A stretch of DNA of 64,000 nucleotides, taken from assembly GCA_964482335.1 (NCBI GenBank), contig CAYZXA010000001.1, forward strand, positions 24,983 to 88,982, in the 5' to 3' direction. How positions within the stretch are numbered: the stretch's first letter is position 1; each line of letters starts with the position of its first letter. Under the pieces are notes generated by a model, which saw only the letters and a program-made list of their open reading frames with translations, searched no databases and was not told the origin of the DNA. This DNA comes from an uncultured Candidatus Saccharibacteria bacterium (GTDB taxonomy: Bacteria; Patescibacteriota; Minisyncoccia; Minisyncoccales; MHMH01). Below are positions 22,516-55,025 of the stretch, piece after piece. The translations under genes and the position numbers were made by a program.

Positions 22516-22842
22516 ATGTTAAAGAAGCAAGAAAAGAGATTAAGACGTCATAAAAGAGTGAGAGCTAAAATAGCAGGTAGTGCTGAAGTGCCGCGACTTT
22601 GCGTTTTCAGATCCCATCAGTATATTTATGCTCAACTGATTGACGATGAAAAAGGAAAAACCCTTATTGCTGTTCAGGGAGAGGCAAATGTTGATAAGGC
22701 AAAAAAAGTGGGGAAACTCATCGCCAAAAAAGCATTAGAGAAAAAGATCGAGAAAGTTGTTTTTGACCGAGGCGGCTATAAATACCACGGCAAAGTAAAA
22801 GCTTTGGCCGAGGGCGCCAGAGAAGGCGGTTTAAAGTTTTAA
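22516..22842 (+). CDS. rplR: 50S ribosomal protein L18
   Basis: C-terminal uL18 core; start trimmed to ATG 22516 right after the rplF stop. Confidence 0.88.
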
Positions 22843-22876
22843 GAACCTCTCTTTCAGCGAGAATCTTGATTTTTTC
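22840..22876 (+). repeat. stop-codon-anchored intergenic element, copy A (TAAGAACCT-stem-loop-GAAYCTTGATTTTT)
   Basis: TAAGAACCTCTCTTTCAGCGAGAATCTTGATTTTTTC; homologous copies at 43264 and 54993. Confidence 0.6.
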
Positions 22877-22888
22877 AAAATTAAATTT

Positions 22889-23380
22889 ATGCAAAGAGAT
22901 AGATTTAGAAAATTTGGAAAGGATAAACCAAAGGATGAATTTGAATCCAAGCTTTTGGATTTAGCTCGCGTTTCTCATACCCGGGCTGGCGGCAGGAAGA
23001 TGAGATTTAGAGCAGTCATTGTCACCGGTGACAAGAAAGGTAAAGTAGGTTTGGGCATAGCTAAAGGCTCTGATGTCCGGTTAGCCATTGAAAAAGCAAC
23101 CCGCCTTTCTAAGAAATATTTAATAGAGGTGCCTATTGTTGAAGATAGTATTCCCCATGAGGTAGAAGCTAAAGTCGGGGCAGCTCGTGTTCTATTAAGG
23201 CCTCAGAGGAAAGGCAGGGGATTGGTGGCTGGAGGCACTGTCAGAGTAGTTTGTAATTTAGCTGGTATTAAAAATATTTCTTCTAAGATATTGGGTAGGA
23301 CCGGCAATAAGATTGGTAATGCCAGAGCAACTATGGAAGCATTAAAAAAATTAAAAGCTCATGCAACTCCACGAACTTAA
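22889..23380 (+). CDS. rpsE: 30S ribosomal protein S5
   Basis: Conserved uS5. Confidence 0.93.
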   Translation: MQRDRFRKFGKDKPKDEFESKLLDLARVSHTRAGGRKMRFRAVIVTGDKKGKVGLGIAKGSDVRLAIEKATRLSKKYLIEVPIVEDSIPHEVEAKVGAARVLLRPQRKGRGLVAGGTVRVVCNLAGIKNISSKILGRTGNKIGNARATMEALKKLKAHATPRT

Positions 23381-23789
23381 ACCAACTCATAAGAAAAAAA
23401 CAAGAAAAAGAGTAGGCAGAGGCGGCAAAAGAGGTACTTATTCTGGCAAAGGAATGAAGGGCCAGAAATCAAGGGCTGGCAAAAGGATGAAGCCGGTGAT
23501 TCGCAGTTTGATTAAAAGGTATCCTAAGTTGAGAGGCTACAAGTTTAATCCTCAAACAACAAAACCTGTTGTTATTAATTTTGAGGTGCTTGAAAAGAAA
23601 TTCAAGTCAGGCGACAAGGTAAGCCCTAAAATCTTGTTAGAAAAGGGATTAATTCGTAAAATAAAAGGGAGGATGCCTCTTGTTAAGATTTTAGGCAAGG
23701 GAAAGATTGCCAAAGCTCTAACCATTGAGGGATGTTCAGTTTCTAAATCAGTTAAAGAGAAACTTAAAACTAATGCAGTGGCTAAATAA
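23361..23789 (+). CDS. rplO: 50S ribosomal protein L15 (no L30 gene between rpsE and rplO)
   Basis: Conserved uL15. Confidence 0.9.
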   Translation: MQLHELKPTHKKKTRKRVGRGGKRGTYSGKGMKGQKSRAGKRMKPVIRSLIKRYPKLRGYKFNPQTTKPVVINFEVLEKKFKSGDKVSPKILLEKGLIRKIKGRMPLVKILGKGKIAKALTIEGCSVSKSVKEKLKTNAVAK

Positions 23790-25053
23790 AGTCATCCAAG
23801 TATTTAAGATTCGCGATCTTCGCAAAAAGATTCTTTTTGTTTTGGCTGTTTTTGTTGTTTTTAGGCTGATGGCCAATATTCCTATGCCCGGCATTGATAT
23901 TGAAAACCTCAAATCTTTCTTTGAGCAGTTTCAAATCTTTGGGCTTTTGAACCTCTTTACCGGTGGTACTTTGTCTAATCTATCAATTATTATGCTAGGT
24001 TTAGGTCCTTATATCACGGCCACCATTATTATGCAGTTATTGACCATGATTTTTCCTCCTTTGGAGCGCATGTATAAAGAAGAAGGCGAGGCTGGCCGTC
24101 AGAAGTTTAATCAGTACGGCAGACTTTTAACCGTGCCCTTAGCCATGATGCAGGGCTATGCTATGCTGACTTTGCTGCAAAAACAAGGAGCTATTGGCGC
24201 CCTTACCCTAACCACTATTCTTACCTCAGTCGTGACCGTGGCAGCTGGCTGTTTATTTTTAATGTGGTTGGGAGAGCTGATTACTGAAAGAGGTATTGGC
24301 AATGGTGTCAGCTTGTTGATTTTTGCTGGAATTATTGCTAGGGTCCCTCAAAGTATCAGAGAAACCCTGGTTAAGTGGGAGCCTTCTCAACTACCAGCTT
24401 ATTTGCTCTTCCTCGGCATGGCTTTGTTAATTATTTCTGGAGTTGTTATGATAAACGAAGGAAGAAGGAACATACCTGTTTCTTATGCTAAAAGAGTCAG
24501 GGGTATGAGAATGTATGGGGGTGTCTCTACCTATTTGCCTTTGAACGTTAACCCAGCAGGCGTTATACCGATTATCTTTGCTTTATCAATCATGCTTTTT
24601 CCTGGTATGGTTGCTAACTTCCTGTCAGGTGCTCCTGGCATGGTTGGTTCTGTTGCTCAGTATGTTGGTGACCTTTTTGAAAATGCCTGGGTTTACGGCA
24701 TCTTATACTTTCTTTTGGTCTGCCTTTTTACTTACTTTTATACGGCTGTTACCTTTGACCCCAAATCAATTTCTTCTAATCTGCAGAAAATGGGTGGCTT
24801 TGTGCCAGGTATCAGGCCAGGCGAATCAACAGCCAACTTCCTTCACTATATTCTAAATAGGGTTCTGCTGATTGGAGCTTTGTTTTTAGGCACGATAGCT
24901 GTTCTGCCTTCAATTATTGGCGGTGCTACTGGCATTACTGTCTTTTCTTTCTTGATTGGTGGTACGGCTTTGCTTATTACTGTTTCAGTTGTCTTGGAGA
25001 CAATGCGCCAAATCAATGCTCAATTACAAATGAGAGAATATGAAACGTTCTAA
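23773..25053 (+). CDS. secY: preprotein translocase subunit SecY
   Basis: 10-TM protein; start set at MQWLNKVIQVF...LRKKILF. Confidence 0.93.
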   Translation: MQWLNKVIQVFKIRDLRKKILFVLAVFVVFRLMANIPMPGIDIENLKSFFEQFQIFGLLNLFTGGTLSNLSIIMLGLGPYITATIIMQLLTMIFPPLERMYKEEGEAGRQKFNQYGRLLTVPLAMMQGYAMLTLLQKQGAIGALTLTTILTSVVTVAAGCLFLMWLGELITERGIGNGVSLLIFAGIIARVPQSIRETLVKWEPSQLPAYLLFLGMALLIISGVVMINEGRRNIPVSYAKRVRGMRMYGGVSTYLPLNVNPAGVIPIIFALSIMLFPGMVANFLSGAPGMVGSVAQYVGDLFENAWVYGILYFLLVCLFTYFYTAVTFDPKSISSNLQKMGGFVPGIRPGESTANFLHYILNRVLLIGALFLGTIAVLPSIIGGATGITVFSFLIGGTALLITVSVVLETMRQINAQLQMREYETF

Positions 25054-25735
25054 GCTATTCATTATTGTTTTAGGACCACCAGGTTCTGGCAAAGGAACCC
25101 AGGCCGAGCTTTTGGCTGAGAAATTTGATTTCTACCACTTAGAAACAAGTGAAATTATTGAGAGAAATTTGGCCAATGCTAAAAAAGACGATTTTGTTCT
25201 GGTCAACAACAAGAAATATTTTTTATTAGACGAGAAAAAAATGAGGGAATCAGGCGAGTTAATGAGCCCTCCTTTGATTGCTTTTTGGGTTAAGGATAAA
25301 ATTAAGGAATTGGCTCAAGAAGGAAAAGGGATTACAACTTCCGGTTCTCCCAGGACGCTCTACGAAGGCAAAGAAGTAGTCCCTGTTTTAAAAAAATTAT
25401 ACGGCATAAAGAATATCAAAGTAATTTTACTTAATTTAAGTGCCAAAGAATCTATTTGGAGAAATTCTCACCGCAGAAGCTGTCGGTTAATGCGGCATCC
25501 TATTTTATACACTAAAGAAACTGCTAAACTGACTAAGTGTCCTATTGATGGTTCAGAATTAATCATCCGCAAGGATGACAATTCAGAGGTTATTAAGATC
25601 AGGTTAAAAGAATATAAAGAAAGAACATTTCCTTTGGTAAAATATTTTAAAGGGGAGGATTTGCAGGTTAAAAAAATAAATGGCAAGCAGTCAGTTGAAA
25701 AAGTATTTAAAGATATTTTAAAAGCTGTCAAATGA
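25040..25735 (+). CDS. adk: adenylate kinase
   Basis: GPPGSGKGTQA P-loop, 231 aa. Confidence 0.92.
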   Translation: MKRSKLFIIVLGPPGSGKGTQAELLAEKFDFYHLETSEIIERNLANAKKDDFVLVNNKKYFLLDEKKMRESGELMSPPLIAFWVKDKIKELAQEGKGITTSGSPRTLYEGKEVVPVLKKLYGIKNIKVILLNLSAKESIWRNSHRRSCRLMRHPILYTKETAKLTKCPIDGSELIIRKDDNSEVIKIRLKEYKERTFPLVKYFKGEDLQVKKINGKQSVEKVFKDILKAVK

Positions 25736-26478
25736 TTACTATTAAAACTGCTCAAGAAATCAAGATAATGGCTGAAGGTGGCAAGATTCTGGCTCGTATC
25801 ATGAAAGAGCTGGAAAAGAAAGTTAAACCAGGAGTTAGTACCAAAGAATTAGACAGGGCTGCAGAAGCCCTGATTTTAGAATCTGGCAGCAAATGTTCTT
25901 TTAAAGGATATGAGGGTTATCCTGCTTGTTTGTGTGCTTCTATTAATCAAGAGATTGTTCACGCTATACCTTCTGATAGAATTTTAAAAGAAGGTGATAT
26001 TCTTTCACTTGATTTAGGTATTTTGTATAAAGGGTTCCATGCTGATATGGCCGTGACGTTGCCGGTTGGCAAAGTTCCTCCTGAAACCCAAAGGTTAATC
26101 AGAGTTACTAAAAAAGCCTTAAAAAGAGGTATTAAAAAGATTAAACCCGGCAATACTTTGGGTGATATTGGCAATACAATTCAAAGACATGTTGAATCCC
26201 AGGGGTTTAATGTAGTCAGAGAGCTTTGTGGCCATGGCATTGGCAGAAAACTTCATGAAGAACCCCAGATTTTAAATTATGGAAAAAGAAAAGCAGGTCT
26301 CGAGATAAAAGAAGGCATGACTTTATGCTTGGAGCCAATGGCTACAGCGGGGGATTACCATATTAGAGAATCAAAAGATGGCCATGGTTTTGAAACTGCT
26401 GATGGTTCTCTTTCAGCACACTTTGAACATATGATCATTGTTACTAAGAATGGAGCAAAGATTTTAACTGTGATATAA
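25732..26478 (+). CDS. map: type I methionine aminopeptidase
   Basis: Pita-bread fold motifs, Co/Mn-binding residues. Confidence 0.95.
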   Translation: MITIKTAQEIKIMAEGGKILARIMKELEKKVKPGVSTKELDRAAEALILESGSKCSFKGYEGYPACLCASINQEIVHAIPSDRILKEGDILSLDLGILYKGFHADMAVTLPVGKVPPETQRLIRVTKKALKRGIKKIKPGNTLGDIGNTIQRHVESQGFNVVRELCGHGIGRKLHEEPQILNYGKRKAGLEIKEGMTLCLEPMATAGDYHIRESKDGHGFETADGSLSAHFEHMIIVTKNGAKILTVI

Positions 26479-26492
26479 TATTTTAATATTAA

Positions 26493-26951
26493 ATGATTGC
26501 TGAGTTTAAAATTCTTTTGATAGCCATGTCGCCGATTTTGGAATTAAGGGGTTCTATTCCTATTGCTCTGGGTGTTTATCAAATGCCGTTTTGGTCTTCT
26601 TTTTTAATTTCAATCGTTGGTAACTTGATTCCTGTTCTTTTGCTTCTTTGGTTGCTGGAGGCTGTTTCTAAATATTTGAGTTCTCACTTTTACTTCTTTA
26701 ACCGTTTCTTTACTTGGTTGTTTGAAAGAGCAAGGAGAAAACATACAGATAAGTTTGAGCGCTGGAAAGAATATGCTTTGGTTGTTTTGGTAGCCATTCC
26801 TTTGCCTTTTACTGGTGCTTGGACAGGTTCTTTGTGTGCCTTTGTCTTTGGCATTCCTTTTAAAAAAGCTTTTCCTTTAATTAGTATTGGTGTAGTTATT
26901 GCTGCTGTTATAGTTACCTTAACTACTTTAAGTATTTTCATAGTTACATGA
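26493..26951 (+). CDS. small membrane protein, COG2426 / small-multidrug-export-like
   Basis: 152 aa, four TM segments; assignment made by recalled family similarity only. Confidence 0.4.
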   Translation: MIAEFKILLIAMSPILELRGSIPIALGVYQMPFWSSFLISIVGNLIPVLLLLWLLEAVSKYLSSHFYFFNRFFTWLFERARRKHTDKFERWKEYALVVLVAIPLPFTGAWTGSLCAFVFGIPFKKAFPLISIGVVIAAVIVTLTTLSIFIVT

Positions 26952-27568
26952 AGCCCTTAATCGTTGCCAATTGGAAAATGAATCCCTCAAGCTTAAAAGA
27001 AGCTAAACTTCTTTTTAATCGTGTGAAAAAAGCTGATGGAATAATTTGTCCACCGTTTGTTTATTTGTCCAGTCTGAAAGCTACTGGCGCTCAGGATGTT
27101 TTTTGGGAAAATAGAGGAGCTTTCACTGGTGAAGTTTCGGCTTTAATGTTGAAGAATTTAGGAGTGAAATACGTTATCGTCGGTCATTCGGAAAGAAGAA
27201 AGCATTTTAAAGAGACAGACGAGATGATTGCTAAAAAAATAAAGGCTGTTTTAAAAGTGAGTTTAAAGCCGATTTTATGCATTGATAAGCTTTCTCAAAT
27301 TCCCAAAAAGATTAAAGGAAAACTAATTGTAGCTTACGAGCCCCTCTTTGCTATTGGCACAGGAAAAGCTTGTAGTCCTTTGAGAGCAAAAAAGATGAGG
27401 CTCAGCATTAAAAAGATTGTTGGCGGCAAGGTGCCTATTTTATATGGCGGCAGTGTCAATTCCCAGAATGCCAAATCATACATTAAACAGGCTGGCTTTC
27501 AGGGCTTATTGGTTGGTGGAGCTTCTTTGAAACCTCAAGAATTCATTGACATTGTTAAAAATACTTGA
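26948..27568 (+). CDS. tpiA: triose-phosphate isomerase (compact, 206 aa)
   Basis: ANWKMN, GHSERR, AYEPLFAIGTGKA, YGGSV motifs. Confidence 0.85.
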   Translation: MKPLIVANWKMNPSSLKEAKLLFNRVKKADGIICPPFVYLSSLKATGAQDVFWENRGAFTGEVSALMLKNLGVKYVIVGHSERRKHFKETDEMIAKKIKAVLKVSLKPILCIDKLSQIPKKIKGKLIVAYEPLFAIGTGKACSPLRAKKMRLSIKKIVGGKVPILYGGSVNSQNAKSYIKQAGFQGLLVGGASLKPQEFIDIVKNT

Positions 27569-27593
27569 CTTATTTGCTTTTTTACAATAGAAT
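27565..27593 (+). promoter_or_regulatory. promoter TTGACT-N17-TAGAAT overlapping the tpiA stop
   Basis: Followed by SD AGGAGA 6 nt before ATG 27608. Confidence 0.45.
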
Positions 27594-27607
27594 ATTAGGA
27601 GATAAAT

Positions 27608-28123: not shown

Positions 28124-28130
28124 AATAATT

Positions 28131-39534: not shown

Positions 39535-40803
39535 ATGGCAGAGAAATTTATCATTAATGGCAGTCGGCCTCTTAAGGGTGAAATTGAAGTGAGAGGTGCT
39601 AAGAATGCTGCTTTTCCGATTTTAGCTGCTTCTCTTTTGACTAAAGACGAATGCTTTATTGAGAATCTTCCTTTGATAGAGGATCTCTTTCGCATGATTG
39701 AAATATTAAAAGGTATGGGCTCTAAGATTTCCTGGGTTGGCCAAAGGTCCCTGAAGATCAAAAATTCTCAGATTGACCCTTTAAAAGTCAGAGAGGATTT
39801 GGTTGGTCTTTTACGGGGTTCAGTGCTTTTTTTCGGACCTTTACTCGGCAGATTCGGTAAGGTAAAATTTCCTCAGCCTGGCGGCGATATTATTGGTGCT
39901 CGTCCCATTAATACTCACTTAGACGGTTTCTCGCAAATGGGAGTTAGCGTTACCAAAGATGGAGATAAATATTTATTGGAAGCTCCCAAAAAGAAAGAGA
40001 AAGAAGTTGTTTTAAATGAGTTTAGCGTGACAGCGACCGAGAACTTAATGCTTTTTGCTAGTTTAATTCCTGGCAAGACAGTTATTAAAACAGCTGACCA
40101 GGACTATCAGGTTATAGAGTTGGCTAAGTTTTTGAAGAAAATGGGAGTTAAGATTAAAGGGGCTGGTACTCATAAGATAACCATCGAAGGCTCTAAAAGA
40201 TTAAAGGGAGTTAAGCATCGACTGATTTATGACCCAATTGAAGCAGGTACTTTTATCTTGACAGCAGTAGCTACCAGAGGTAATGTTTTGGTGAAAAATG
40301 TAGAAATCTCCTTTTTAGAGCTTCCTTTAAAAAAACTTAAAGATTTCGGCGTACCTTATCAGATTGTTGGGAAAAAAGGCATTAGAGTTTTGCCTTGGAA
40401 GAGCCTGAAGATTGATAAAATTCAAAGTATGCCTTATCCTGGCATTCCTTCTGATTTACAGTCTGCTTTCGGAGTTTTAGCTACCCAGGCCCAAGGCTCT
40501 ACTTTAATTCATGACCCGCTTTACGAAGGCAGGTTGAAATATCTTGAGGAAATCAATAAAATGGGAGCAGAAATCTATTTTGCTGATCCTCATCGGGCAG
40601 TCATTAACGGTCCGACTCAGCTTTATGGCAGAGAACTTGGTTCTTTTGATTTGAGGGGCGGGGCATCTTTAATCATTGCTGGCTTGATTGCCAAAGGAAA
40701 AACAACTATTAATAATATATATCAGATAGATAGGGGATATGAGAAAATAGAAGAGAGGCTGCAGCAATTAGGAGCTGACATTAAAAGAGTAAAAAATTCT
40801 TAA
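39535..40803 (+). CDS. murA: UDP-N-acetylglucosamine 1-carboxyvinyltransferase
   Basis: EPSP-synthase fold, 422 aa, conserved MurA sequence. Confidence 0.93.
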   Translation: MAEKFIINGSRPLKGEIEVRGAKNAAFPILAASLLTKDECFIENLPLIEDLFRMIEILKGMGSKISWVGQRSLKIKNSQIDPLKVREDLVGLLRGSVLFFGPLLGRFGKVKFPQPGGDIIGARPINTHLDGFSQMGVSVTKDGDKYLLEAPKKKEKEVVLNEFSVTATENLMLFASLIPGKTVIKTADQDYQVIELAKFLKKMGVKIKGAGTHKITIEGSKRLKGVKHRLIYDPIEAGTFILTAVATRGNVLVKNVEISFLELPLKKLKDFGVPYQIVGKKGIRVLPWKSLKIDKIQSMPYPGIPSDLQSAFGVLATQAQGSTLIHDPLYEGRLKYLEEINKMGAEIYFADPHRAVINGPTQLYGRELGSFDLRGGASLIIAGLIAKGKTTINNIYQIDRGYEKIEERLQQLGADIKRVKNS

Positions 40804-40845
40804 TTGCTTCGCAATTACAAGGAGTGAAGCAACTGGTTATAACCT

Positions 40846-42711: not shown

Positions 42712-43266
42712 ATGCATAAAGAGATAATTGATAAAATTAAGCCAGAACTGGACAAGGTTATTCATTTTTTAGAAGGAGAATTGGCTAAAATTAGGACTTC
42801 AAGAGCATCTCCTTCTCTGGTCGAAGATGTGAAAGCTGATTGCTTTGGTCAGAAACTCCCCTTGAGGCAGTTGGCAGCCATTTCAACACCTGAAGCCAAA
42901 CAGATATTAATACAACCCTGGGACAAATCCTATATTAAAGGCATTGTTTCTGCTTTGGAAAAGGCTGGTATTGGTGCCAATCCCGTGGTTGATAAAGATG
43001 TTATTCGTATTCAACTACCTCCTTTGACAGAGGAATATCGTAAGAATCTTTTGCACTTGTTATCTGATAAGCAGGAAGAGGCTCGCAAGACCTTGAGGAG
43101 GTGGAGAGAGCAAGCATGGAAGGAGGTTCAGGATGGTTTTCAAGAAGGTAAGATTAGGGAAGATGATAAGTTCCGGGCCAAGGATGATTTGCAGGAATTA
43201 ATAGATGAATACAATAAGAAGATTGATAACCTGGGAGATAAGAAGAAACGAGAAATAACAAGGTAA
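42712..43266 (+). CDS. frr: ribosome recycling factor
   Basis: Conserved RRF. Confidence 0.93.
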   Translation: MHKEIIDKIKPELDKVIHFLEGELAKIRTSRASPSLVEDVKADCFGQKLPLRQLAAISTPEAKQILIQPWDKSYIKGIVSALEKAGIGANPVVDKDVIRIQLPPLTEEYRKNLLHLLSDKQEEARKTLRRWREQAWKEVQDGFQEGKIREDDKFRAKDDLQELIDEYNKKIDNLGDKKKREITR

Positions 43267-43296
43267 GAACCTTGCTTTTAGCAAGAACTTTGGATA
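43264..43296 (+). repeat. stop-codon-anchored intergenic element, copy B
   Basis: TAAGAACCTTGCTTTTAGCAAGAACTTTGGATAC. Confidence 0.55.
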
Positions 43297-43313
43297 CTTA
43301 GTATTTAAAACAC

Positions 43314-44387
43314 ATGTTAATTATTACTATCTTAGTTGCTATTTTCAGTTTGATAGGATTAATCATTATCCATGAATTCGGTCACTTCGTTCTAGCTAAG
43401 AAGTTTGGCACCAAGGTTGAAGAGTTTGGTATTGGTTATCCGCCCAGGATTGTTGGCAAGAAAATCGGTGAGACAATTTATTCTTTGAATCTGCTACCTT
43501 TTGGTGCTTTTGTTAGGATTCACGGGGAGGAAGGCGGTGTAGAGAACTACCGCAGCTTTGTTGGCAAGCCTATATGGCAGAGGGTTTCAATTGTTCTGGG
43601 AGGCGTTGTTTCTTTTTGGATCATATCAATTGTTTTGTTAAGTATTGTGGCAGGAGTCTGGGGTTTGCCCGTAGCCGTTGAAGACGATGACAATCATAAT
43701 TTAATAGAGCCAAAGGTTCAGATTGCCTACATTATTCCTGGTTCGCCAGCAGCTAAAGCTGATTTAAGGGCCGGTGATGTTATTGTTGGCTTTGATAAAG
43801 TCAGAGATGTTCAAGAATTTGTTCAGGCCAATTTAGGTCAAGAAACTGACATGACTATTAAACGGGGGCAGGATTTGTTTAGCAAGCAGGTTATTCTCCG
43901 GACTTCTTTTCCGGAAGATGAAGGACCTTTGGGCGTTGGTTTAACCAGGACTGCTTTAAGACCTTATACCTGGTATCAGGCACCGGTCCAGGGAGTGATT
44001 ACTTGTGGTAAGCTCACTTATAATATTGTTGATGGCTGGGTCTTGGGAGTCAAAAACCTTTTGGGCATAGTTCAATTGCCCAAAGGTCTGAAAATGGAAA
44101 TGATGGGGCCAATCGGTATCCTTGATTTGCTGAGGCAATACTCTAAACTGGGTATTAATTACTTTTTATTTTTAATATCTTTAATTTCAATTGCTTTAGC
44201 TTTAGCTAATATTCTGCCCATTCCGGCTTTGGATGGAGGAAAACTTGTCTTTCTGGTCATTGAGAGCATTAAAGGTAAACCGATTAATTATAAACTGGAG
44301 CAAAAGATTACCGCTACTTTCTTCGTTCTATTAATTATCTTGATGATTTTCGTTACTATAAAATTTGATATCCCAAGAATATTTTAA
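43314..44387 (+). CDS. rseP: RIP metalloprotease RseP (site-2 protease with PDZ domain)
   Basis: HEFGHF in TM1, PDZ, LDGG motif. Confidence 0.85.
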   Translation: MLIITILVAIFSLIGLIIIHEFGHFVLAKKFGTKVEEFGIGYPPRIVGKKIGETIYSLNLLPFGAFVRIHGEEGGVENYRSFVGKPIWQRVSIVLGGVVSFWIISIVLLSIVAGVWGLPVAVEDDDNHNLIEPKVQIAYIIPGSPAAKADLRAGDVIVGFDKVRDVQEFVQANLGQETDMTIKRGQDLFSKQVILRTSFPEDEGPLGVGLTRTALRPYTWYQAPVQGVITCGKLTYNIVDGWVLGVKNLLGIVQLPKGLKMEMMGPIGILDLLRQYSKLGINYFLFLISLISIALALANILPIPALDGGKLVFLVIESIKGKPINYKLEQKITATFFVLLIILMIFVTIKFDIPRIF

Positions 44388-48231: not shown

Positions 48232-48748
48232 TGTTGATACCATAATTTCATTTCTTACTTCCCAAGAAGTGCAGCAAGACTTATTCTGGGTTAAACTTGG
48301 TTTTTTGATTTTTTCCGGACTGTTAGTGCTTGGTATAATTATTTTAGCCCTCTTTAAAACTCATTATCTGCAATGGCGGTTTTTCCAGGACAGTTTTGAA
48401 TTTTTAACTTACCGCCAGTTTGGTGCCCGGAGAATGCAAGGAAAATGGAGAAAGATTTTGAAGCGCTTGGAAACCGGCCTTGAGTCAGAATACAAAATAG
48501 CCATTGTTGAAGCTGACAATATGTTGAACAATTCTTTGAACAGGATGGGCTATGTGGGAAAAACGCTTGGAGAAAGATTAGAGAAGCTGGCTTCGGCTAC
48601 CATACCCAATATCGACGAGGTTCACCAAGCTCATAAGCTTCGCAATTCTATTGTTCGCGATCCTGATTATCAATTGAGCTTGGAGGATGCTAAAAGAACT
48701 ATAGATATTTATGGAAAAGCCTTTACTAGTTTACAGATTTTAGCTTGA
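48221..48748 (+). CDS. hypothetical membrane-anchored protein
   Basis: 175 aa, N-terminal TM. Confidence 0.5.
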   Translation: MKIDVDTIISFLTSQEVQQDLFWVKLGFLIFSGLLVLGIIILALFKTHYLQWRFFQDSFEFLTYRQFGARRMQGKWRKILKRLETGLESEYKIAIVEADNMLNNSLNRMGYVGKTLGERLEKLASATIPNIDEVHQAHKLRNSIVRDPDYQLSLEDAKRTIDIYGKAFTSLQILA

Positions 48749-48779: not shown

Positions 48780-49065
48780 CAGCGCCGTGGAGGAGTAGTA
48801 CCTCACCAGTCTCATAAATTTTTGTGACCTAAAATGGTAACATTTTATGGAAAAATTCCCGAAATTGCTGGGAACCCGTAAAAATATTTTATGGCAATCA
48901 GCAGCCAAGCTTCGACATTTTGTCGGAGAAGGTTCAGAGACTATAATGGGAACACCCTTTTATTTAAGGGAGATGGGATAGTCCGTTCCATTTGGAAACA
49001 AATGGCTAACACTAAAGAAGCTGGGGGCCCCCGTGCAATTCGGGGCGGCGCAACAAAGATTCTAT
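48780..49065 (+). ncRNA. candidate structured non-coding RNA or long 5' leader (unclassified)
   Basis: Several local hairpins (CGACAtttTGTCG; CCATTTGgaaaCAAATGG; GCCCCGtgcaattCGGGGC) and a GC-rich block atypical of this genome; the only ORF (48891..49094) has no SD and odd composition. Confidence 0.3.
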
Positions 49066-49120: not shown

Positions 49121-49121
49121 C

Positions 49122-49832
49122 ATGGCTAGAATTATAGAAAAAAATAAAGCGCTAAGACTGCGCCAAAAAGGGAAAAGTATAAATGAAATTGCTAGAAGAT
49201 TAAAATTACCAAAAAGCACTGTTAGTGTTTGGTGTCGTGATATTAAACTTACTTCGGAACAGATCGGAAGATTAGCAAAAAGACAAAAATCTGGAAGTTA
49301 TAAAGGAAGAATGAAATTTTTAGAAAGAGTAAGAAAAAAAAGAATGGAAGAGATGATAAGATTGAGAAAGGAAGGAATTCAAGAGATTGGTAAGATAAAA
49401 AAAAGAGATTTATTTGTTGCTGGAATTGCAATGTATTGGAGCGAAGGAGTGACTTCTTCAAATAGCGATGAAGTAAGTTTTTCTAATTCAGACCCCAAAA
49501 TGCTTCTTTTGATGTTGAGATGGTTTAAAGAGATTTGTGGCGTATTAGATAACCAATTTGTTATTCAAATCAGAATCAATAAAATACATAAACAGAGAAT
49601 AAAAGAGATTGAAAATTATTGGTCTAATATAACAAAGATTTCATTAAGCCAATTTACTAAAACGATTTTAATAAAAAGTAAATTGAAGAAGATTTATCCT
49701 AAGACCGACGCTTATTACGGTACTCTAAGAATAAAAATTCGACGCGGTACTCAATTAAGAAGAAAGATTAATGGTTGGATTGAAGGATTGGCTAGGCGGG
49801 GTAGCTCAGTTGGTAGAGCAAAGGACTCATAA
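49122..49832 (+). CDS. HTH-domain protein (hypothetical); the 3' end overlaps tRNA-Met by 38 nt
   Basis: N-terminal helix-turn-helix (KSINEIARRLKLPKSTVSVW); the stop TAA coincides with the tRNA anticodon loop. Confidence 0.4.
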   Translation: MARIIEKNKALRLRQKGKSINEIARRLKLPKSTVSVWCRDIKLTSEQIGRLAKRQKSGSYKGRMKFLERVRKKRMEEMIRLRKEGIQEIGKIKKRDLFVAGIAMYWSEGVTSSNSDEVSFSNSDPKMLLLMLRWFKEICGVLDNQFVIQIRINKIHKQRIKEIENYWSNITKISLSQFTKTILIKSKLKKIYPKTDAYYGTLRIKIRRGTQLRRKINGWIEGLARRGSSVGRAKDS

Positions 49833-49867
49833 GCCTTAGGTCGTGGGTTCAAGTCCCACCCTCGCCA
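49795..49867 (+). tRNA. tRNA-Met (anticodon CAT; elongator Met or Ile2 not distinguished)
   Basis: GGCGGGG-TA-GCTCAGTTGGTAGAGC...CTCATAA...GTGGGTTCAAGTCCCAC-CCTCGCC-A cloverleaf. Confidence 0.8.
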
Positions 49868-49892
49868 CATTAAAATTTTAATATTGAATTCT

Positions 49893-49969
49893 GGGGACGT
49901 AGCTCAATTGGTTAGAGCACATGCTTGTCGAGCATGGGGTTGCCGGTTCGAGTCCGGTCGTCCCCGCCA
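49893..49969 (+). tRNA. tRNA-Asp (anticodon GTC), CCA encoded
   Basis: GGGGACG...TTGTCGA anticodon loop...GGTTCGAGTCCGG...CGTCCCC-G-CCA. Confidence 0.85.
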
Positions 49970-50010
49970 AACGATTATTGATAAACGATAGAAAATAAAG
50001 GAGGTGAAAA

Positions 50011-50268
50011 ATGAGCGAAGATAGTGTTCTTTCACTAGAAGAAGCAGAAGAAATATGGGAGAAGCATTTAAGCATCGGTGAAAAGAGTGAAATGTTTCAG
50101 GAACTATTAAAGAAAGGTAAAATTTCTTTTATAGATTATGGACTAGGTGTTAACCGTCATTTCGAAAGACTTAGACACTTAACAAAATCATCAATTGCTA
50201 AAAAAATAGAGGAAAACGAGCCGTTGTCAGTTGCTTTCGCCCATTCTAAAATAAGAGAAACCACCTGA
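50011..50268 (+). CDS. hypothetical 85-aa protein
   Basis: SD AAAGGAGGTG 5 nt upstream. Confidence 0.5.
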   Translation: MSEDSVLSLEEAEEIWEKHLSIGEKSEMFQELLKKGKISFIDYGLGVNRHFERLRHLTKSSIAKKIEENEPLSVAFAHSKIRETT

Positions 50269-50289
50269 GTATTGCAAGGGTGGTTTTTT
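50261..50289 (+). terminator. Rho-independent terminator overlapping the stop codon
   Basis: CCACCTgagtattgcaAGGGTGG TTTTTT. Confidence 0.55.
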
Positions 50290-50419
50290 ATTGAAGATTG
50301 CCTTTTCTTTCGGAATATGGTAGATAAATCAGAGGAGGTGAATCAATATAGTTTTTTAACAAGAGAATAAACACTGTAACGCTCAACAAAATAAAAAAAG
50401 CCAAAAGAAGGAAAAGAAA

Positions 50420-51136
50420 ATGGAAAAACTGATTACTATACAGAAGAGTGTAATTCCTGCTTGTGATGTGGATACCTTGGGAAAATTGGGACAGGTAGCC
50501 GAGGCTACTTTTGGCCTATCAGGAATTGGTGCCTATAAAGTCGGATTAGAGCTTGCTCTTTCCTTCGGCTTAAAAGAGGTAGTTAAGATAATCAGGGAAC
50601 ATAGTAATTTCCCAGTTATCTATGACCACCAAAAAGCAGCTACTGACATTCCAGCCCTAGGAACAAAATTTGCTAAGGCAGTGAAAGGTGCCGGCGTAGA
50701 CGCTGTAATACTATTTCCCTTTGGAGGTGCTGCGACTGAGCGAGAGTGGATAAAAGTTTGTCGAGAAGAAGGTTTAGTGGTTTTAGTTGGCGGTCATATG
50801 ACCCAGCCGGAGTTTCTTGAGGCGGAAGGTGGCTTTATTGCTACTACAGGGCCAGAAAGAATGTATCAGATTGCTGCTGACAGTGGGGTGACCAATTTTG
50901 TTGTTCCGGGAAATAAGCCGGAATTTGTTCTAAAGTATCGTCAGCTACTAGAAAAAGAGTTGGGAGAGGACAAATTTACCCTCTATGCTCCTGGCTTCAT
51001 TACTCAGGGTGGTAGTATCTCGGAGGCCGGCCAGATGGCTGGAGACAATTGGCATGCAATTATCGGCAGTGCTATTTATAAAGCTGAGAATATGAGAAAA
51101 GCTGCTCAGCAGGTGACATTTCAGATTGTTAGCTAA
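50420..51136 (+). CDS. pyrF: orotidine-5'-phosphate decarboxylase family (PyrF-like; the related HPS/KGPDC branch not excluded)
   Basis: TIM-barrel OMPDC-family motifs (IPACDVDT, DHQKAATDIP, IIGSAIY); immediately upstream of pyrE. Confidence 0.65.
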   Translation: MEKLITIQKSVIPACDVDTLGKLGQVAEATFGLSGIGAYKVGLELALSFGLKEVVKIIREHSNFPVIYDHQKAATDIPALGTKFAKAVKGAGVDAVILFPFGGAATEREWIKVCREEGLVVLVGGHMTQPEFLEAEGGFIATTGPERMYQIAADSGVTNFVVPGNKPEFVLKYRQLLEKELGEDKFTLYAPGFITQGGSISEAGQMAGDNWHAIIGSAIYKAENMRKAAQQVTFQIVS

Positions 51137-51173
51137 TAGCCATGCCACCAAAAATCCAAGGAGGTAAAAAGAA

Positions 51174-51833
51174 ATGGTAACTAGAGAAGGACTAACCAAT
51201 TCGCAAAAACAGGTAGCTAACAGAATTTATGATCGGGAAGCAGTAAAGTTTGGAGCCTTCAAATTAAAACTTCATGAGAAGAATCCTGATGCCCCGCTTT
51301 CTCCCATCTATATTACTCTCCGGAAACCACCTGGCGGACCTTTGACCGATGTGGATGTTGAGATGATCGGGCAAGAACTTTACGCCCAGGTAAAAAAGCA
51401 AAAAGTCCTATTTGATGTAGTAGCTGGTATTCCTCGAGCTGGAGAACCATTTGCTGAAGTGGTCGCTCGATTGTCAAGAAGACCCACGCTCAAACTTAGC
51501 AAGAAGGAAGGAGGAGATAAACGAAAGATTGACTCAATTGTCAGTGGAGAATACCGACCTGGCCAGCTTGTCTTATTGGTTGATGATTTAATCACTCAGG
51601 CTGATACAAAGAAAGAGGCAATCGGGGTTTGTGAGAATGCCGAGTTAACAGTTGCCGGAGTAGTCGTCCTGGTAGATCGGGAACAAGGCGGATCAGAGGA
51701 CTTAGGGAATGCCGGTTACACCTTGCATACTGTTTTTCCTCTTTCAGCTCTTCTTGACTATTATGTTGAGGTTGGCAAGATTGATTCGGTAAAGTGTGAT
51801 GAGGTAATGGAATACATCACAGCTAACAGATAG
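51174..51833 (+). CDS. pyrE: orotate phosphoribosyltransferase
   Basis: Type I PRT motif LLVDDLITQADT; SD AAGGAGG. Confidence 0.8.
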   Translation: MVTREGLTNSQKQVANRIYDREAVKFGAFKLKLHEKNPDAPLSPIYITLRKPPGGPLTDVDVEMIGQELYAQVKKQKVLFDVVAGIPRAGEPFAEVVARLSRRPTLKLSKKEGGDKRKIDSIVSGEYRPGQLVLLVDDLITQADTKKEAIGVCENAELTVAGVVVLVDREQGGSEDLGNAGYTLHTVFPLSALLDYYVEVGKIDSVKCDEVMEYITANR

Positions 51834-51863
51834 GTCAGTGCTTTAAAGAGTTTAATATTAAGG

Positions 51864-51897
51864 TCGCTGGGACCAGTGCGTTCCAGCGATTTTTCTT
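51864..51897 (+). terminator. Rho-independent terminator
   Basis: TCGCTGGGAC-cagtgc-GTTCCAGCGA TTTTTCT. Confidence 0.55.
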
Positions 51898-51961
51898 GTG
51901 AAGTTATCCCCAGTTTTCAGCTTGATTTTAGGTTAATTTTAAGGTAAAATAAAGGAAGGAA

Positions 51962-52975
51962 ATGACTCTGAAAACCCTTAAAATTGAGGCTGAAAAAGCC
52001 ATTGAAAAAGCTCGAGATTTGAAGGTTTTGAACAATGCTTTTAAGAAATATCTGGGTAAAAAATCAGAACTTACCCGGATTTTGCGTTCTTTAGAAAAGC
52101 TACCTAAAGCCAAGCGAGTTAAAGTTGGTAAAGAAGCTAATACTTTGAAGAATTCTTTAAGGATTCAATTTGATAAAAAAGCCAGAGAACTTAAAGAGAA
52201 AGCCCAAAAAGAAACTGAAGAAAAAGAATGGATAGATGTGACCGTTCCTGGCAAAAGGCCTGTTTTAGGCCATTTACATCCTCTGACCTTGGTCAAAAGA
52301 AAAGCAGAAGAGATTTTCCAAGCCATGGGCTTTACAGTAATTCAAGGTCCAGAGATGGAGAATGAATGGTATAACTTTGATGCTTTAAACATTCCTAAAG
52401 ACCATCCAGCCAGAGATCTTTGGGATACTTTCTATTTGAAGAATGGTTTGCTTTTAAGAACTCATACCTCTCCTGTGCAGATTAGATTTATGGAAAAAAA
52501 CCAGCCGCCTTTAAGAATTATTGTGCCAGGAAGAATCTTTCGGCACGAGGCGACCGATGCTTCTCATGAGACTAACTTTTATCAGCTAGAAGGGTTAATG
52601 GTTTCAGAACAAGTTTCTGCTGCTAACTTTAAAGCCATTATCGAAGAATTCTTCCAGAGATTCTTTGAAAAACCAGTAAAAATTCGCTTGATACCCAGCT
52701 TTTTCCCGTTTGTGGAGCCTGGTTTTCAAGTTGATATGACCTGTTTAAATTGCGAAGGCAAGGGTTGTCCAGCTTGTTCTCGGACTGGTTGGCTAGAGAT
52801 GATGGGAGCTGGCATGGTTCATCCTAATGTTTTGAGAGCAGCCGGCTTAAATCCTAAAAACTGGCAGGGTTTTGCCTTTGGCATGGGAATAGATAGATTG
52901 GCTATGATGAAATATAAAATTAACGATATTAGATTATTTTATTCTGGAGACTTAAGGTTTCTCCAACAATTTTAA
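51962..52975 (+). CDS. pheS: phenylalanine--tRNA ligase alpha subunit
   Basis: Class II motifs, 337 aa. Confidence 0.93.
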   Translation: MTLKTLKIEAEKAIEKARDLKVLNNAFKKYLGKKSELTRILRSLEKLPKAKRVKVGKEANTLKNSLRIQFDKKARELKEKAQKETEEKEWIDVTVPGKRPVLGHLHPLTLVKRKAEEIFQAMGFTVIQGPEMENEWYNFDALNIPKDHPARDLWDTFYLKNGLLLRTHTSPVQIRFMEKNQPPLRIIVPGRIFRHEATDASHETNFYQLEGLMVSEQVSAANFKAIIEEFFQRFFEKPVKIRLIPSFFPFVEPGFQVDMTCLNCEGKGCPACSRTGWLEMMGAGMVHPNVLRAAGLNPKNWQGFAFGMGIDRLAMMKYKINDIRLFYSGDLRFLQQF

Positions 52976-52976
52976 A

Positions 52977-54995
52977 ATGAAATTCTCCTATAATTTTTTT
53001 AGAGATTACGTTTCAAGATTGCCAAAGCCAGAAAAATTGGCCGAGCTTTTAACACAGCACTCTTTTGAGGTAGAGGAAGTTAAAAAAACCGGAGGAGATT
53101 TTCTCCTAAGTATTGATATCCTGCCTAATCGAGCTCCTGATTGTTTCTCACATTTTGGTGTTGCCAGAGAAATAGCAGCTATTACCAAATCAACTTTAAA
53201 GCCCCTGCTTGTTCGAGGCTTGATCTCAAACAAACTGAAGACCAGGGATTATGTTTCAGTTGATATTAGGGATAAAAAAGCCTGTCCTCGCTATACAGCT
53301 AAAGTTCTAACTGACGTTAAAGTAGGATCTTCCCCTAAATGGTTGAAAGACAGGTTAAGGGTTTGCGGCTTGAATCCAATCAACAATATTGTTGATATTG
53401 CCAACTACGTTATGCTGGAAACCGGCCAGCCCTTGCATGCTTTTGACGGTCAGAAACTAGAAGGCAAAAAGATTATTGTCAGATTTGCCAAAAACAGAGA
53501 GAAGATAGTTACTTTAGATGAGCAAAAATTTGATTTGAATCCCGATGTTTTAGTCATTGCTGATATCAAAAAACCAATAGCCATTGCTGGCCTCAAGGGA
53601 GGCAAAATACCAGAAATAGATAAAAAGACAAAAATAGTTGTTTTGGAATCAGCCAATTTCAATCCGCGGGTCATTCGCAAGAGTTCCAGGAAATTAAATT
53701 TGAAAACTGACGCTTCTTTAAGATTTGAACATGGCATTGACTCTAACTTAACTGAATTGGCTATTTCGCGAGCTGCTTATTTAATCCAAAAAATTGCTGG
53801 TGGCAAAATAGCTCAAGGCTTGATTGATATCTATACTAAGAAATCTTATCCAAAGAGAATTAGGTTAGACTATGGGTACCTTATAAGGCTTTTAGGAATA
53901 AAAATAGAAAGGAAAGAAGTCAAAAGTATCTTAACTAAATTAGGATTTAAAATTATTAAAGAGAAATTTCCCAATTTGATCGTTGAGGTCCCAACCTGGA
54001 GATTGGATGTTTCAATTCCAGAAGATTTGATTGAAGAAATCGGCAGAATATATGATTATGAGAAAATTCCTGCTACTTTTCCCATAGCTGCCCTGATTCC
54101 AGCCAAAAGAAATTTAAACGCCTTTTGGGAAGATATGACAAAGAATATTTTGAAAGAAGCTGGTTTTACTGAAGTTTATAATTACTCCTTTATTTCTGAA
54201 GATGAGGTAAAGATATTTAACAATGAGAACCTGATTGAGTTGGAAAACCCGATGAGCAAAGAACAGAAGTATTTGCGGTCTAGTTTAATTCCAAATTTAT
54301 TAAAAAACGTTCAGAAGAACCAGAAAAGTTTTAATAAGATTAGGATTTTTGAACTAGGCAAGATTTTTGGTTTAAAGATTAAAGAAAAAAGACAGCTGGC
54401 CGGCTTGATTAGTGGTGATGATTTTTACCGACTCAAGGGGGTGATGGATTTGCTTTTGAACAAATTAGGCATTAGCAATATTTGGTATGATGAGCACCAG
54501 CCAACGCCTGGACAAAGCAAGAAAGCTCTATGGCATGCCAAGAAATGTGCTGAGATTAAGGTAGACAACAAAGAAATCGGCTTTTTAGGAGAGATTTCAC
54601 CAAGAATTCTGCAGTCTTTGAAGATTGCCAATAAGGTAGTTGTCTTTGATTTGGGTTTTGACAAGTTGCAGAAGCTTGCTTCAGAAGAGCATGAGTATAT
54701 GTCTCTTTCCAAGTTTCCTTCAGCTGTCAGAGATTTGGCTGTTTTGGTCCCCCGGGGCACTAAAGTAGTTCAGGTTTTAAATAAGATAAATGCGGCTGGC
54801 GGCAAATTAATCAGAGATATTGATTTATTTGATATTTACGAGGGAGAAGAGCTGCCTCAAGGCAAAAAGAATTTAGCTTTTCATATCATCTATCAGGCGA
54901 AAGATAGAACCCTTAAATCAAAAGAGGTAGATGAAATTCATCAAAAAATAATTAAAGCTTTAGAAAAAGATCCAACATGGCAAATAAGAAAGTAA
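52977..54995 (+). CDS. pheT: phenylalanine--tRNA ligase beta subunit (short, 672 aa)
   Basis: B3/B4, B5 and FDX-ACB-like regions; lacks the EMAP-like tRNA-binding insert. Confidence 0.9.
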   Translation: MKFSYNFFRDYVSRLPKPEKLAELLTQHSFEVEEVKKTGGDFLLSIDILPNRAPDCFSHFGVAREIAAITKSTLKPLLVRGLISNKLKTRDYVSVDIRDKKACPRYTAKVLTDVKVGSSPKWLKDRLRVCGLNPINNIVDIANYVMLETGQPLHAFDGQKLEGKKIIVRFAKNREKIVTLDEQKFDLNPDVLVIADIKKPIAIAGLKGGKIPEIDKKTKIVVLESANFNPRVIRKSSRKLNLKTDASLRFEHGIDSNLTELAISRAAYLIQKIAGGKIAQGLIDIYTKKSYPKRIRLDYGYLIRLLGIKIERKEVKSILTKLGFKIIKEKFPNLIVEVPTWRLDVSIPEDLIEEIGRIYDYEKIPATFPIAALIPAKRNLNAFWEDMTKNILKEAGFTEVYNYSFISEDEVKIFNNENLIELENPMSKEQKYLRSSLIPNLLKNVQKNQKSFNKIRIFELGKIFGLKIKEKRQLAGLISGDDFYRLKGVMDLLLNKLGISNIWYDEHQPTPGQSKKALWHAKKCAEIKVDNKEIGFLGEISPRILQSLKIANKVVVFDLGFDKLQKLASEEHEYMSLSKFPSAVRDLAVLVPRGTKVVQVLNKINAAGGKLIRDIDLFDIYEGEELPQGKKNLAFHIIYQAKDRTLKSKEVDEIHQKIIKALEKDPTWQIRK

Positions 54996-55025
54996 GAACC
55001 TCGCTTTGCGAGAACCTTGATTTTT
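54993..55025 (+). repeat. stop-codon-anchored intergenic element, copy C
   Basis: TAAGAACCTCGCTTTGCGAGAACCTTGATTTTT. Confidence 0.6.

Follow-up and report, generated by a model that had tools for sequence, protein, structure and literature searches.

Genomes of the CPR/Patescibacteria are tiny and tightly packed, and are thought to be poor in mobile DNA. Among described small bacterial elements, the miniature derivatives of IS200/IS605 (PATEs) are at least 100 nt long and keep the hairpin sequences recognised by their TnpA, and MIRU are 40–100 bp units within operons that form small ORFs bridging stop and start codons. BOX, Correia/NEMIS, ERIC and Rickettsia palindromic elements measure 100–200 bp, and most of them are bounded by terminal inverted repeats and show TA duplications, while an integron attC site has two core sites in inverted orientation, R'' (RYYYAAC) and R' (GTTRRRY), which base-pair together. 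REP sequences and REPINs are short, extragenic, hairpin-forming non-coding repeats mobilised by RAYT transposases (PMC3116915, PMC3337134). TIGR units have two 8–12-nt spacers flanked by box C/D motifs and lie beside a gene for Tas, a Nop-domain protein (PMC12045711). Here, we describe three sequences in a 64,000-nt stretch of DNA (hereafter the window) that are probably members of a miniature, non-coding insertion-repeat family in a clade of Nealsonbacteria/Parcubacteria-like Patescibacteria.

On the + strand of the window, TAAGAACCT begins at positions 22840, 43264 and 54993, and its TAA is the stop of the ORF ending at 22842, 43266 and 54995, respectively; Pfam matches on these genes or their orthologues identify the upstream ORFs as L18 (rplR), RRF (frr) and PheT. 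A first-pass annotation had placed three copies at the TAA stops of these genes, with which our coordinates and ORF ends agree, and had held that the recurrence was not due to chance. This is borne out by the composite pattern AGAACCT-N8-20-AGAAYYTTGR, which matched three times in the window and never in 100 shuffles. The 9-mer alone, with one mismatch allowed, was not enriched in the window (22 occurrences versus 26.8 in shuffles), indicating that the signal resides in the composite element. A covariance model scored the sites at E = 3.8e-7, 5.5e-7 and 2.5e-4, the match at site 1 being by construction since the training set combined copies from other genomes with site 1, and it found no fourth copy in the window (next best match, E = 0.76).

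Copy 1 (22840..22885, + strand) lies between rplR and rpsE and is composed of the TAA stop (22840–22842), GAAC (22843–22846), hairpin 1 (22847–22861; stem CTCTC/GCGAG with a single T·C mismatch, loop TTTCA), the linker AAT (22862–22864) and hairpin 2 (22865–22885; CTTGATTTT-TTC-AAAATTAA), with the rpsE ATG at 22889. Copy 2 (43264..43310, + strand), between frr and an M50 peptidase (rseP-like) gene, has its TAA stop at 43264–43266, GAAC at 43267–43270, hairpin 1 at 43271–43285 (CTTGCT-TTT-AGCAAG, hence a CTTGC(T)/(A)GCAAG stem), the linker AAC at 43286–43288 and hairpin 2 at 43289–43310 (TTTGGATAC-TTA-GTATTTAAA, two G·U pairs), followed by the next ATG at 43314; its two-hairpin fold reaches −10.5 kcal/mol (z = −2.7). 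Copy 3 (54993..55053, + strand), between pheT and gyrB, consists of the TAA stop (54993–54995), GAAC (54996–54999), hairpin 1 (55000–55012; CTCGC-TTT-GCGAG), the linker AAC (55013–55015), hairpin 2 (55016–55031; CTTGATT-TTT-AATTAA) and an A/T-rich tail to ~55053 that includes the ATG now used to start gyrB (55038). The downstream motif given in the first-pass annotation stands for sites 1 and 3, which go on with CTTGATTTTT, but not for site 2, which reads AGAACTTTGGATAC where a sister lineage keeps the canonical AGAACCTTGG at the frr site; a C-to-T substitution at 43289 has taken the window copy off the family consensus.

Across the family, the unit reads TAA-GAAC-(hairpin 1, G+C-rich and variable)-A-GAAC-(hairpin 2: CTTGATT...core...AATTAA) and is about 40–70 nt long. 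Both hairpins open with CU, close with AG and are preceded by single-stranded GAAC; loops are 3–5 nt, the cores of hairpin 2 come in short, medium and long forms, and CTTGATT is usually followed by C. The compensatory stem change highlighted in the first-pass annotation proved real, with pairing kept across the whole family while stem sequences are free to vary. When the gap between the two fixed motifs was left unconstrained, 70 of 131 distinct matches formed a nested helix with three or more base pairs there (7.5 expected). In the inner helix of hairpin 1, 96.7% of cells are paired and four pairs change on both sides, giving 119 double-change cells compared with 41.7 in shuffles, a value reached by none of 500 shuffles, and the signal collapses in slid controls. 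Hairpin 2 has about two G·U pairs on the sense strand, and its top strand is the more stable in 44 of 48 cases, whereas for hairpin 1 plus flanks the opposite strand folds better in 111 of 119. Single window copies fold weakly, with stems of 5–6 pairs, −5.6 to −10.5 kcal/mol and z = −0.6 to −2.7.

A search of 624 kb returned at least 109 covariance-model matches (E ≤ 1e-3). They fall in 94 loci and represent about 55 species genomes of Patescibacteria, most of which bear a Nealsonbacteria or Parcubacteria label. Copy density is ~1 per 17–20 kb, with five copies in ~94 kb of the source genome, and between copies of one genome the stems show no sequence relationship. The element's TAA is the exact upstream stop in 19 of 53 copies, and in four more the upstream stop falls within the first 12 nt of the element; the next start codon lies 11–50 nt past CTTGATT in 31 of 51. 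Relative to flanking genes, 44 copies are co-oriented, with the gene on either side, and 13 antisense, a bias confounded with replication direction. Some copies lie inside ORFs, with occasional in-frame insertions (the nusB tail and loci L016/L087), and tandem arrays of two to five units in direct orientation are common. Rfam gave no match at the three sites at the gathering threshold, nor at the elements of 14 element-rich loci at E ≤ 1, and the motif was not found in the published literature; the family is apparently undescribed so far.

Filled and empty sites were compared using a sister lineage with flanks 93–97% identical in DNA. At rplR|rpsE, sister loci L224 and L226 read TTTTAA-ATT-ATG, that is, a 3-nt spacer and no element; positions 22843–22884 (42 nt, plus one extra T) are missing there, and the BLAST alignment breaks at 22842/22881. 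Sister locus L227 has no element and a 19-nt overlap of pheT and gyrB; ~58 nt (54996–55053, equivalently 54993–55050) are missing there, and the alignment breaks at 54995/55043. GyrB begins MANKKIKK in L227 and MLKKLKK in the window, where the new gyrB start codon comes from the pheT copy. These empty sites mark copies 1 and 3 as recent insertions of 42 and 58 nt, and the element is also absent from the rplR|rpsE junction in 79 of 80 further relatives (S5 63–91% identical; the exception is L137). A third recent insertion occupies the nusB 3' end, 30 kb downstream on the same contig, where the old C-terminal codons persist as diverged non-coding DNA 3' of the unit; the relatives P0019, P0020 and P0041 (88–96% identity) end in KEIE-K, which makes the empty state ancestral. 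Taken together, the alignments show copies 1 and 3 and the nusB copy to have arrived after the split from a sister ~95% identical in DNA. The frr copy is common to the sister lineage, with orthologous copies aligned in L228–L232, and is by this comparison an older copy. The reconstructed events are three only, all in one lineage, and the sister has no private insertion in the ~30 kb compared. A possible relative is a 41-nt insertion on the + strand (40799..40839), placed at the TAA stop codon of a gene that ends at 40803; the insertion reads TAATTGCTTCGCAATTACAAGGAGTGAAGCAACTGGTTATAA and is missing in the sister lineage. It has a hairpin-2-like stem, AATTGC-TTC-GCAATT, but lacks GAAC, has no second copy in any fetched locus and is not detected by covariance model R1, so that its membership in the family is uncertain.

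Judged from these junctions, units enter at the sequence TAA, at or near gene 3' ends. All three reconstructed empty sites read TAA^A; the nusB TAA does not lie in the reading frame, so what is targeted is the sequence and not a stop codon. A T precedes AAGAAC in 91 of 95 copies, and GAAT|TAA forms the unit end in most. TAA (or TA) is present at both junctions of sites 1 and 3, and the right-hand copy at nusB is displaced by 5 nt; a 3-nt target duplication is indistinguishable here from insertion 3' of TAA by an element itself ending in TAA. Terminal inverted repeats are absent, as the left end (GAACCT...) and the right end (...CTTGAATTAA) are not reverse complements. After insertion, the unit's 5' TAA serves as the stop codon of the upstream gene, and its A/T-rich 3' end can supply or precede the next gene's start codon.

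The first-pass annotation's suggestion of a miniature REP-like repeat was apt in that REP-like elements, short imperfect extragenic palindromes in many copies, are the closest known kind, but GTAG is lacking and the stems are unlike. Copies of both REP/REPIN and the present family are scattered through intergenic regions, frequently right behind a stop codon, and preserve base pairing by compensatory substitution; in both cases a structured single strand is the presumed mobile form and the bacterial host genomes are otherwise compact. In contrast to the GTAG-type 5' tetranucleotide, near-homogeneous families and hundreds of copies per genome of REP, the units have flanking GAAC, stems that differ almost completely within a genome and the low density given above; they are single or in direct tandem arrays, unlike the inverted doublets of REPINs. 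We saw no RAYT gene in the DNA sampled (~8 kb per locus) and know of no REPINs described in Patescibacteria. The layout is likewise that of IS200/IS605-type elements, with subterminal hairpins, no inverted termini and three TAA^A empty sites. As in PATEs, a hairpin lies near each end, insertion occurs beside a short specific sequence (here TAA at the left, and similar at the right end) and the orientation bias is compatible with a lagging-strand template; however, PATE hairpin sequences are kept whereas these stems vary, and no tnpA or Y1 HUH transposase was seen in the sampled DNA near elements.

Like MIRU, the units sit between operon genes, oriented with transcription, form direct tandem repeats and contact the stop and start codons of flanking genes, but the variable two-hairpin architecture is theirs only and there is no sequence similarity. 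They share modularity, some promoter-like variants and occasional in-frame ORF insertions with BOX, Correia/NEMIS, ERIC and Rickettsia elements, from which their length and lack of inverted termini set them apart; the same lack of terminal inverted repeats speaks against a DDE-transposon-derived MITE. TIGR arrays resemble the family in occurring in CPR bacteria, in their tandem units, variable palindromes and short conserved motifs, and in being missed by CRISPR-type repeat finders. Here, however, the variable part is the palindrome itself, the 3–5-nt loops leave no spacers, units are mostly solitary between housekeeping genes, and arrays neighbour ribosomal, cell-division and similar genes with no Tas. 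An integron attC site was rejected: AAC stands on both sides in direct orientation with no same-strand GTT partner, and the units are flanked by core housekeeping genes rather than cassettes.

We propose that a factor acting in trans would mobilise the copies, reading the single-stranded motifs and hairpin shape rather than stem sequence, in a process most like the single-strand (HUH-type) transposition of REP/REPIN or IS200/IS605-derived elements. Stop-codon anchoring would then reflect TAA target preference plus selection, given that, with genome spacers of 0–5 nt, insertions may survive only at gene boundaries. In mRNA, the unit would add two weak hairpins directly after the stop codon and could uncouple cistrons that once abutted or overlapped, any benefit to the host probably being secondary. 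We found no transposase or other candidate mobilising gene near the elements (~8 kb per locus examined) and no recurrent non-housekeeping protein family among 876 nearby ORFs; the recurring proteins are housekeeping (FtsA, FtsZ, MurC, PilB-like and ribosomal proteins), as are the ORFs between oppositely oriented copies within a locus. Both hairpins differ among the three recent insertions; a single master copy does not account for them, and many sources or recombinational import of filled alleles would be required. A speculative extension, which we hold only tentatively, is that these ~40–60-nt two-hairpin units may be the smallest self-propagating bacterial elements known so far, with recognition by shape and single-stranded GAAC, a TAA target and enzyme-driven junction remodelling in streamlined CPR genomes. 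Since each unit would bring a stop codon at one end and, at the other, an A/T-rich tail that sometimes bears a promoter and ATG, entry into abutting or overlapping essential genes could be non-lethal. In an equally tentative variant, the host may have domesticated the units as operon punctuation marks.

The alternative that survives best, unlikely though we judge it, is that the units are cis-acting RNAs kept by selection, operon punctuation marks that happen to spread, whether for upstream 3'-end protection, as processing sites for an endonuclease (e.g. RNase III, E or Y) or for translation insulation. Covariation as strong as this, with stem sequence free to vary, is a usual mark of structural RNAs, the conserved GAAC before each hairpin is a candidate recognition site, and the spacing to the next start codon fits; the 44:13 orientation bias and the sense-strand G·U pairs of hairpin 2 hint at selection on RNA. 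Orientation is inseparable from replication direction, however, about a quarter of copies are antisense to their neighbours or inside ORFs, single-copy folds are weak, and hairpin 1 plus flanks folds better on the antisense strand. Sites 1 and 3 are empty in the sister, and so is the rplR|rpsE junction in nearly all 80 relatives: these genes do without the element, and copies so recent are not conserved regulators of these particular genes.

It is less probable still that the units are not self-mobile and that homologous recombination imports filled alleles from co-occurring relatives, with local duplication by slippage or unequal exchange between TAA...TAA or AAGAAC repeats. Such import would suit the mutual unlikeness of the recent insertions, the frequency of tandem arrays and the element-encoded NusB tail KNLSSSTQEP in P0022 (86% identical), which suggests shared polymorphism or a hot spot. 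It leaves unexplained the first arrival at dozens of unrelated junctions in ~55 species genomes, and the insert flanks are not visibly more diverged than the rest (93–97%), nor does the TAA boundary vary among the reconstructed junctions.

We give little credence to a portable promoter cassette of sigma-70 type (−35 TTGATT, 16–17 nt, −10 TATAAT) driving the downstream gene, often as a near-leaderless mRNA. Long-form units do read TTGATT-CGCTAAGGTATAAATA-TATAAT-CTTGAATT-ATG and keep T1, A2 and T6 of the −10 hexamer in ~90% of cases, several adjoin ATG, and all long units of the L096 array are flagged promoter-like. The window copies, however, belong to the short form and have no −10 within working distance (a weak 9/12 match at site 3, none at site 1), some long forms point away from any gene, and TATAAT is also the 3' arm of the hairpin 2 inner stem and may be structural. 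Least credible, to the point of near-dismissal, is the first-pass annotation's family of intrinsic terminators, here Rho-independent and ending transcription after rplR, frr and pheT: a stem-loop directly 3' of the stop codon and a T-run, GATTTTT, 9–10 nt past the stem at sites 1 and 3 speak for it, but AGAACCTTGA and no U-tract follows the G+C-rich stem, separating it from that T-run, the family consensus has none (C after CTTGATT), stems have 5–6 pairs, a terminator scan makes no + strand call at any of the three sites (opposite strand only, at sites 2 and 3), the thrS copy of L012 stands 3' of a separate canonical terminator, and with site 1 inside a ribosomal-protein operon and site 3 directly before gyrB, rather than at ends of transcription units, termination would cut off essential downstream genes.

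On the preferred reading of a mobile insertion-repeat family, three or four insertions of 40–60 nt have occurred within the ~21 kb compared since a split at ~95% DNA identity. They separate ribosomal-protein genes from one another and pheT from gyrB, which formerly overlapped, and they account for odd N- and C-termini (GyrB, NusB) and for gene-calling differences in such MAGs. The family also cautions that covariation by itself does not identify a conserved regulatory RNA. Because structure is kept in the family while stem sequence varies, discovery of the mobilising factor would yield a new tool-like enzyme. Gene junctions in these CPR genomes turn over fast.

On the forward strand of the window, TAAGAACCT starts at positions 22840, 43264 and 54993, and at each site its TAA is the stop codon of an ORF (3' ends 22842, 43266 and 54995). 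Pfam searches of the same or orthologous genes identified the upstream products as L18, ribosome-recycling factor and PheT; rpsE, an M50 peptidase gene and gyrB follow downstream. The composite pattern AGAACCT-N8-20-AGAAYYTTGR was matched three times in the window compared to none in 100 shuffles, in agreement with the first-pass annotation, which had placed a recurring element at the TAA of rplR, frr and pheT. The 9-mer by itself, with one mismatch tolerated, was not enriched in the window. The stem pairings proposed earlier were confirmed at the sites, with one T.C mismatch at site 1 (rplR|rpsE). The element recurs as described, but the CTTGATTTTT tail described for all copies is missing at site 2 (frr|M50 peptidase).

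A search for additional copies, which the first-pass annotation had suggested, was productive. With 10 kb of contig added at each end, two more were recovered, both downstream. One copy lies between thrS and a miaB-like gene, past a canonical terminator and on the minus strand, as are those genes; another sits inside nusB at its 3' end, roughly 30 kb beyond the window on the downstream side (L012, the window's own contig downstream, 21339-21372), where the TGA stop comes from the element's CTTGA. The covariance model R1, built from copies in other genomes plus site 1, which matches by construction, detected exactly five copies in about 94 kb of contig with filters off, the next-best match having E = 0.76. 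Scanning species-representative genomes for AAGAACCT-N5-30-AGAAYCTTGATT returned at least 118 stretches; among the matches listed, about 94 fell in Patescibacteria MAGs (roughly 55 assemblies), and the remainder were scattered single matches without the hairpin. At E <= 1e-3, R1 identified 109 copies in 624 kb. The window is a section of a 122-kb JGI metagenome contig. The window-lineage NusB and the motif-bearing genomes are labelled Candidatus Nealsonbacteria or Parcubacteria. Bona fide units were also present in L088, L098 and L115 (loci titled 'Gammaproteobacteria'), in L099 ('Nanoarchaeota') and in many 'uncultured Candidatus Saccharibacteria' MAGs; the titles naming unrelated taxa are probably wrong labels or reflect mis-binned contigs. 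No Rfam family matched the element, and we found no description of the motif, or of such repeats in these bacteria, in the papers searched.

The units share the layout TAA-GAAC-[hairpin 1]-A-GAAC-[hairpin 2]. Hairpin 1 begins with CU and ends with AG, and encloses 3-9 more pairs of free sequence and a loop that is usually TTC or TTT. Hairpin 2 is formed by CTTGATT...AATTAAG with a conserved G.U pair, and its core may be short (e.g. CCTTCGG), medium (CTCGCTTCGCTCG) or long (about 29 nt). The 3' end reads GAAT|TAA, so that a TAA stands at both ends of the unit, and in arrays of 2-5 units the terminal TAA doubles as the start of the next. The long core resembles a sigma-70 promoter (TTGATT, 16-17 nt, TATAAT), with CTTGAATT-ATG frequently coming next; its TATAAT also serves as an arm of an inner stem. 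All three window copies are of the short form, with a hexamer spacing that is wrong for a promoter, and the promoter-like appearance is confined to long forms elsewhere. In L096 (2820-3118), five 66-nt long-form units stand in tandem, each with a promoter-like TTGATT-17-CATAAT, and a spurious-looking 435-aa ORF runs through the array; arrays of this kind will mislead gene callers.

We then evaluated the pairing of hairpin 1 across the family. Of the 131 distinct matches listed, 70 contained a nested helix of 3 bp or more in the gap left free by the search pattern, compared to 7.5 expected. Across 95 distinct copies the inner helix was 96.7% paired, with changes on both sides in four of its six pairs. 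The 119 double-change cells observed compare with 41.7 in shuffles, none of 500 attaining the observed value, and extend across the family the pairing-preserving stem changes first noticed in the window. In slid controls, pairing fell to 18-68%. The 95-copy alignment was fitted to the model, and both the pattern-independent gap test and a MAFFT seed of 30 sequences, which gave the same picture of inner-helix pairing, agree with it. An outer stem TAAG/CTTG around hairpin 1 was considered and rejected: it is conserved yet without covariation, and most copies leave its column 3 unpaired. A better fit is for CTTGATT to pair with AATTAAG further downstream, forming hairpin 2.

The two hairpins were compared on both strands. 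Hairpin 1 with its flanks folds more stably on the opposite strand in 111 of 119 cases. Hairpin 2, which contains about two G.U pairs per copy, does so on the top strand (reading TAA-GAAC) in 44 of 48. On the opposite strand, hairpin 1 would have C-GAA-G loops and tandem G.A pairs, at positions where the top strand has U.C/C.U. A wobble test for the functional strand in hairpin 1 stems was uninformative (A.C 10, G.T 6). On the sense strand the recurrent core CTCGCTTCGCTCG (e.g. in L072, L045 and L049) has tandem U.C/C.U mismatches, and its complement, CGAGCGAAGCGAG, includes a GCGAAGC mini-hairpin together with tandem G.A pairs in CGAG context, both of which are unusually stable motifs.

The history of the sites was read from a sister lineage with 93-97% DNA identity, whose contigs were reached via cluster mates of the window's S5, GyrB, M50 peptidase and NusB. 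BLAST alignments between the two are interrupted precisely where the elements lie. A 3-nt spacer separates the sister rplR from rpsE (TTTTAA-ATT-ATG), where the window contains an additional 42 bases (GAACC...CAAAATTAA). The sister gyrB starts inside pheT, giving a 19-nt overlap (L227, 2183-2201), and its GyrB begins MANKKIKK. The window carries about 58 additional bases after the pheT TAA; the gyrB ATG (55038) and first five codons lie inside this insert, GyrB begins MLKKLKK, and the insertion has therefore swapped the N-terminus of an essential gene without disrupting it. The sister nusB ends KEIEKK, 1 nt ahead of rnc. The window lineage has a unit that entered at an out-of-frame TAA (TAT AAA) and encodes the last 10 nusB codons (KNLSPLAQEP) plus the TGA stop, and the old tail persists as diverged non-coding DNA, which proves an insertion in the window lineage rather than a deletion in the sister. 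NusB of a relative (P0022, 86% identical) ends KNLSSSTQEP, so that either the same site was struck in another lineage or the polymorphism is old.

The empty sites read TAA^A in 3 of 3, the reconstructed insertion events numbering only three and all belonging to one lineage. The rplR|rpsE element is absent from all but one of 80 further relatives listed (S5 protein 63-91% identical). The frr copy occurs in both window and sister, with slight decay in the window's version. No empty site was obtained for the thrS|miaB copy, whose sole cluster mate has the same sequence, and about 30 kb of the sister contained no insertion private to it.

Other small insertions were also noted. The gene preceding mreB has a 41-nt insertion at its TAA stop in the window (about 40799-40839, forward strand); this insertion is absent from the sister, has a hairpin-2-like stem (AATTGC-TTC-GCAATT) without the GAAC motif and supplies an AAGGAG ribosome-binding site to the next gene; it may be a relative of the repeat family, and no second copy was present in any fetched locus. 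In other Patescibacteria the rplR|rpsE junction bears unrelated short repeat-like inserts (L136, L139/L140, L159, L171, L176, L186, L208 and L213), for instance a 37-nt unit repeated three times in tandem in L176 and a 'ttgatggatttccgaaatc' duplication in L136, and looks like a hot spot of small insertions in general. An Rfam group I intron match (RF00028; 91.8 bits, E = 2.9e-22) at 48803-49005 on the forward strand lies in the spacer past an ORF ending at 48748 and upstream of tRNA genes at 49795-49867 and 49893-49966, and may interrupt an RNA gene.

Judged by crude ORF calls, which are rough in foreign loci, 44 units were co-oriented with both neighbours, 13 opposed both, 16 lay between convergent or divergent genes and 22 apparently within an ORF. 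The upstream stop was exactly the element's TAA in 19 of 53 cases and fell within its first 12 nt in four more. Unit orientation also tracks GC skew, which is confounded with gene direction (six informative cases, split 3:3). Clustering of 876 ORFs near elements gave only housekeeping proteins as recurrent neighbours, as did a search for an associated gene among ORFs between opposite-orientation copies of one locus and among array neighbours. Two genomes each carry a unit in frame within what seems to be a shared ORF (L016 7486-7516 and L087 2397-2427), reminiscent of the in-frame palindromic elements of Rickettsia.

Among other readings, the units may act at the RNA level (in 3'-end protection, processing or insulation) as a secondary or domesticated function, which would parallel the role of this kind reported for E. 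coli REPs; such a role cannot explain why these particular junctions bear the element, because close relatives lack it there. The REP-like reading of the first-pass annotation survives as a resemblance in function: the likeness to REP/REPIN and IS200/IS605-type single-strand elements would be functional rather than demonstrated membership, since this family has no GTAG motif or homogeneous stems, and neither inverted doublets nor, among ORFs near elements, a transposase-like or Nop-domain gene was seen in the sampled loci. The intrinsic-terminator family proposed alongside it was rejected after a terminator scan, on both anatomy and position. Phage carriage (10 viral-contig pattern matches, none with the hairpin, attributable to chance), TIGR arrays, attC sites and uptake sequences (on architecture or density) were likewise dismissed.

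Together, these data define a family of two-hairpin repeats, conserved in structure and variable in sequence, whose units have been gained at TAA sequences at gene ends, repeatedly and recently in the window lineage. Copies would be mobilised in trans by a factor recognising GAAC and the hairpin shape. Their anchoring at stop codons is best explained by a TAA target combined with purifying selection in a genome almost without spacers.
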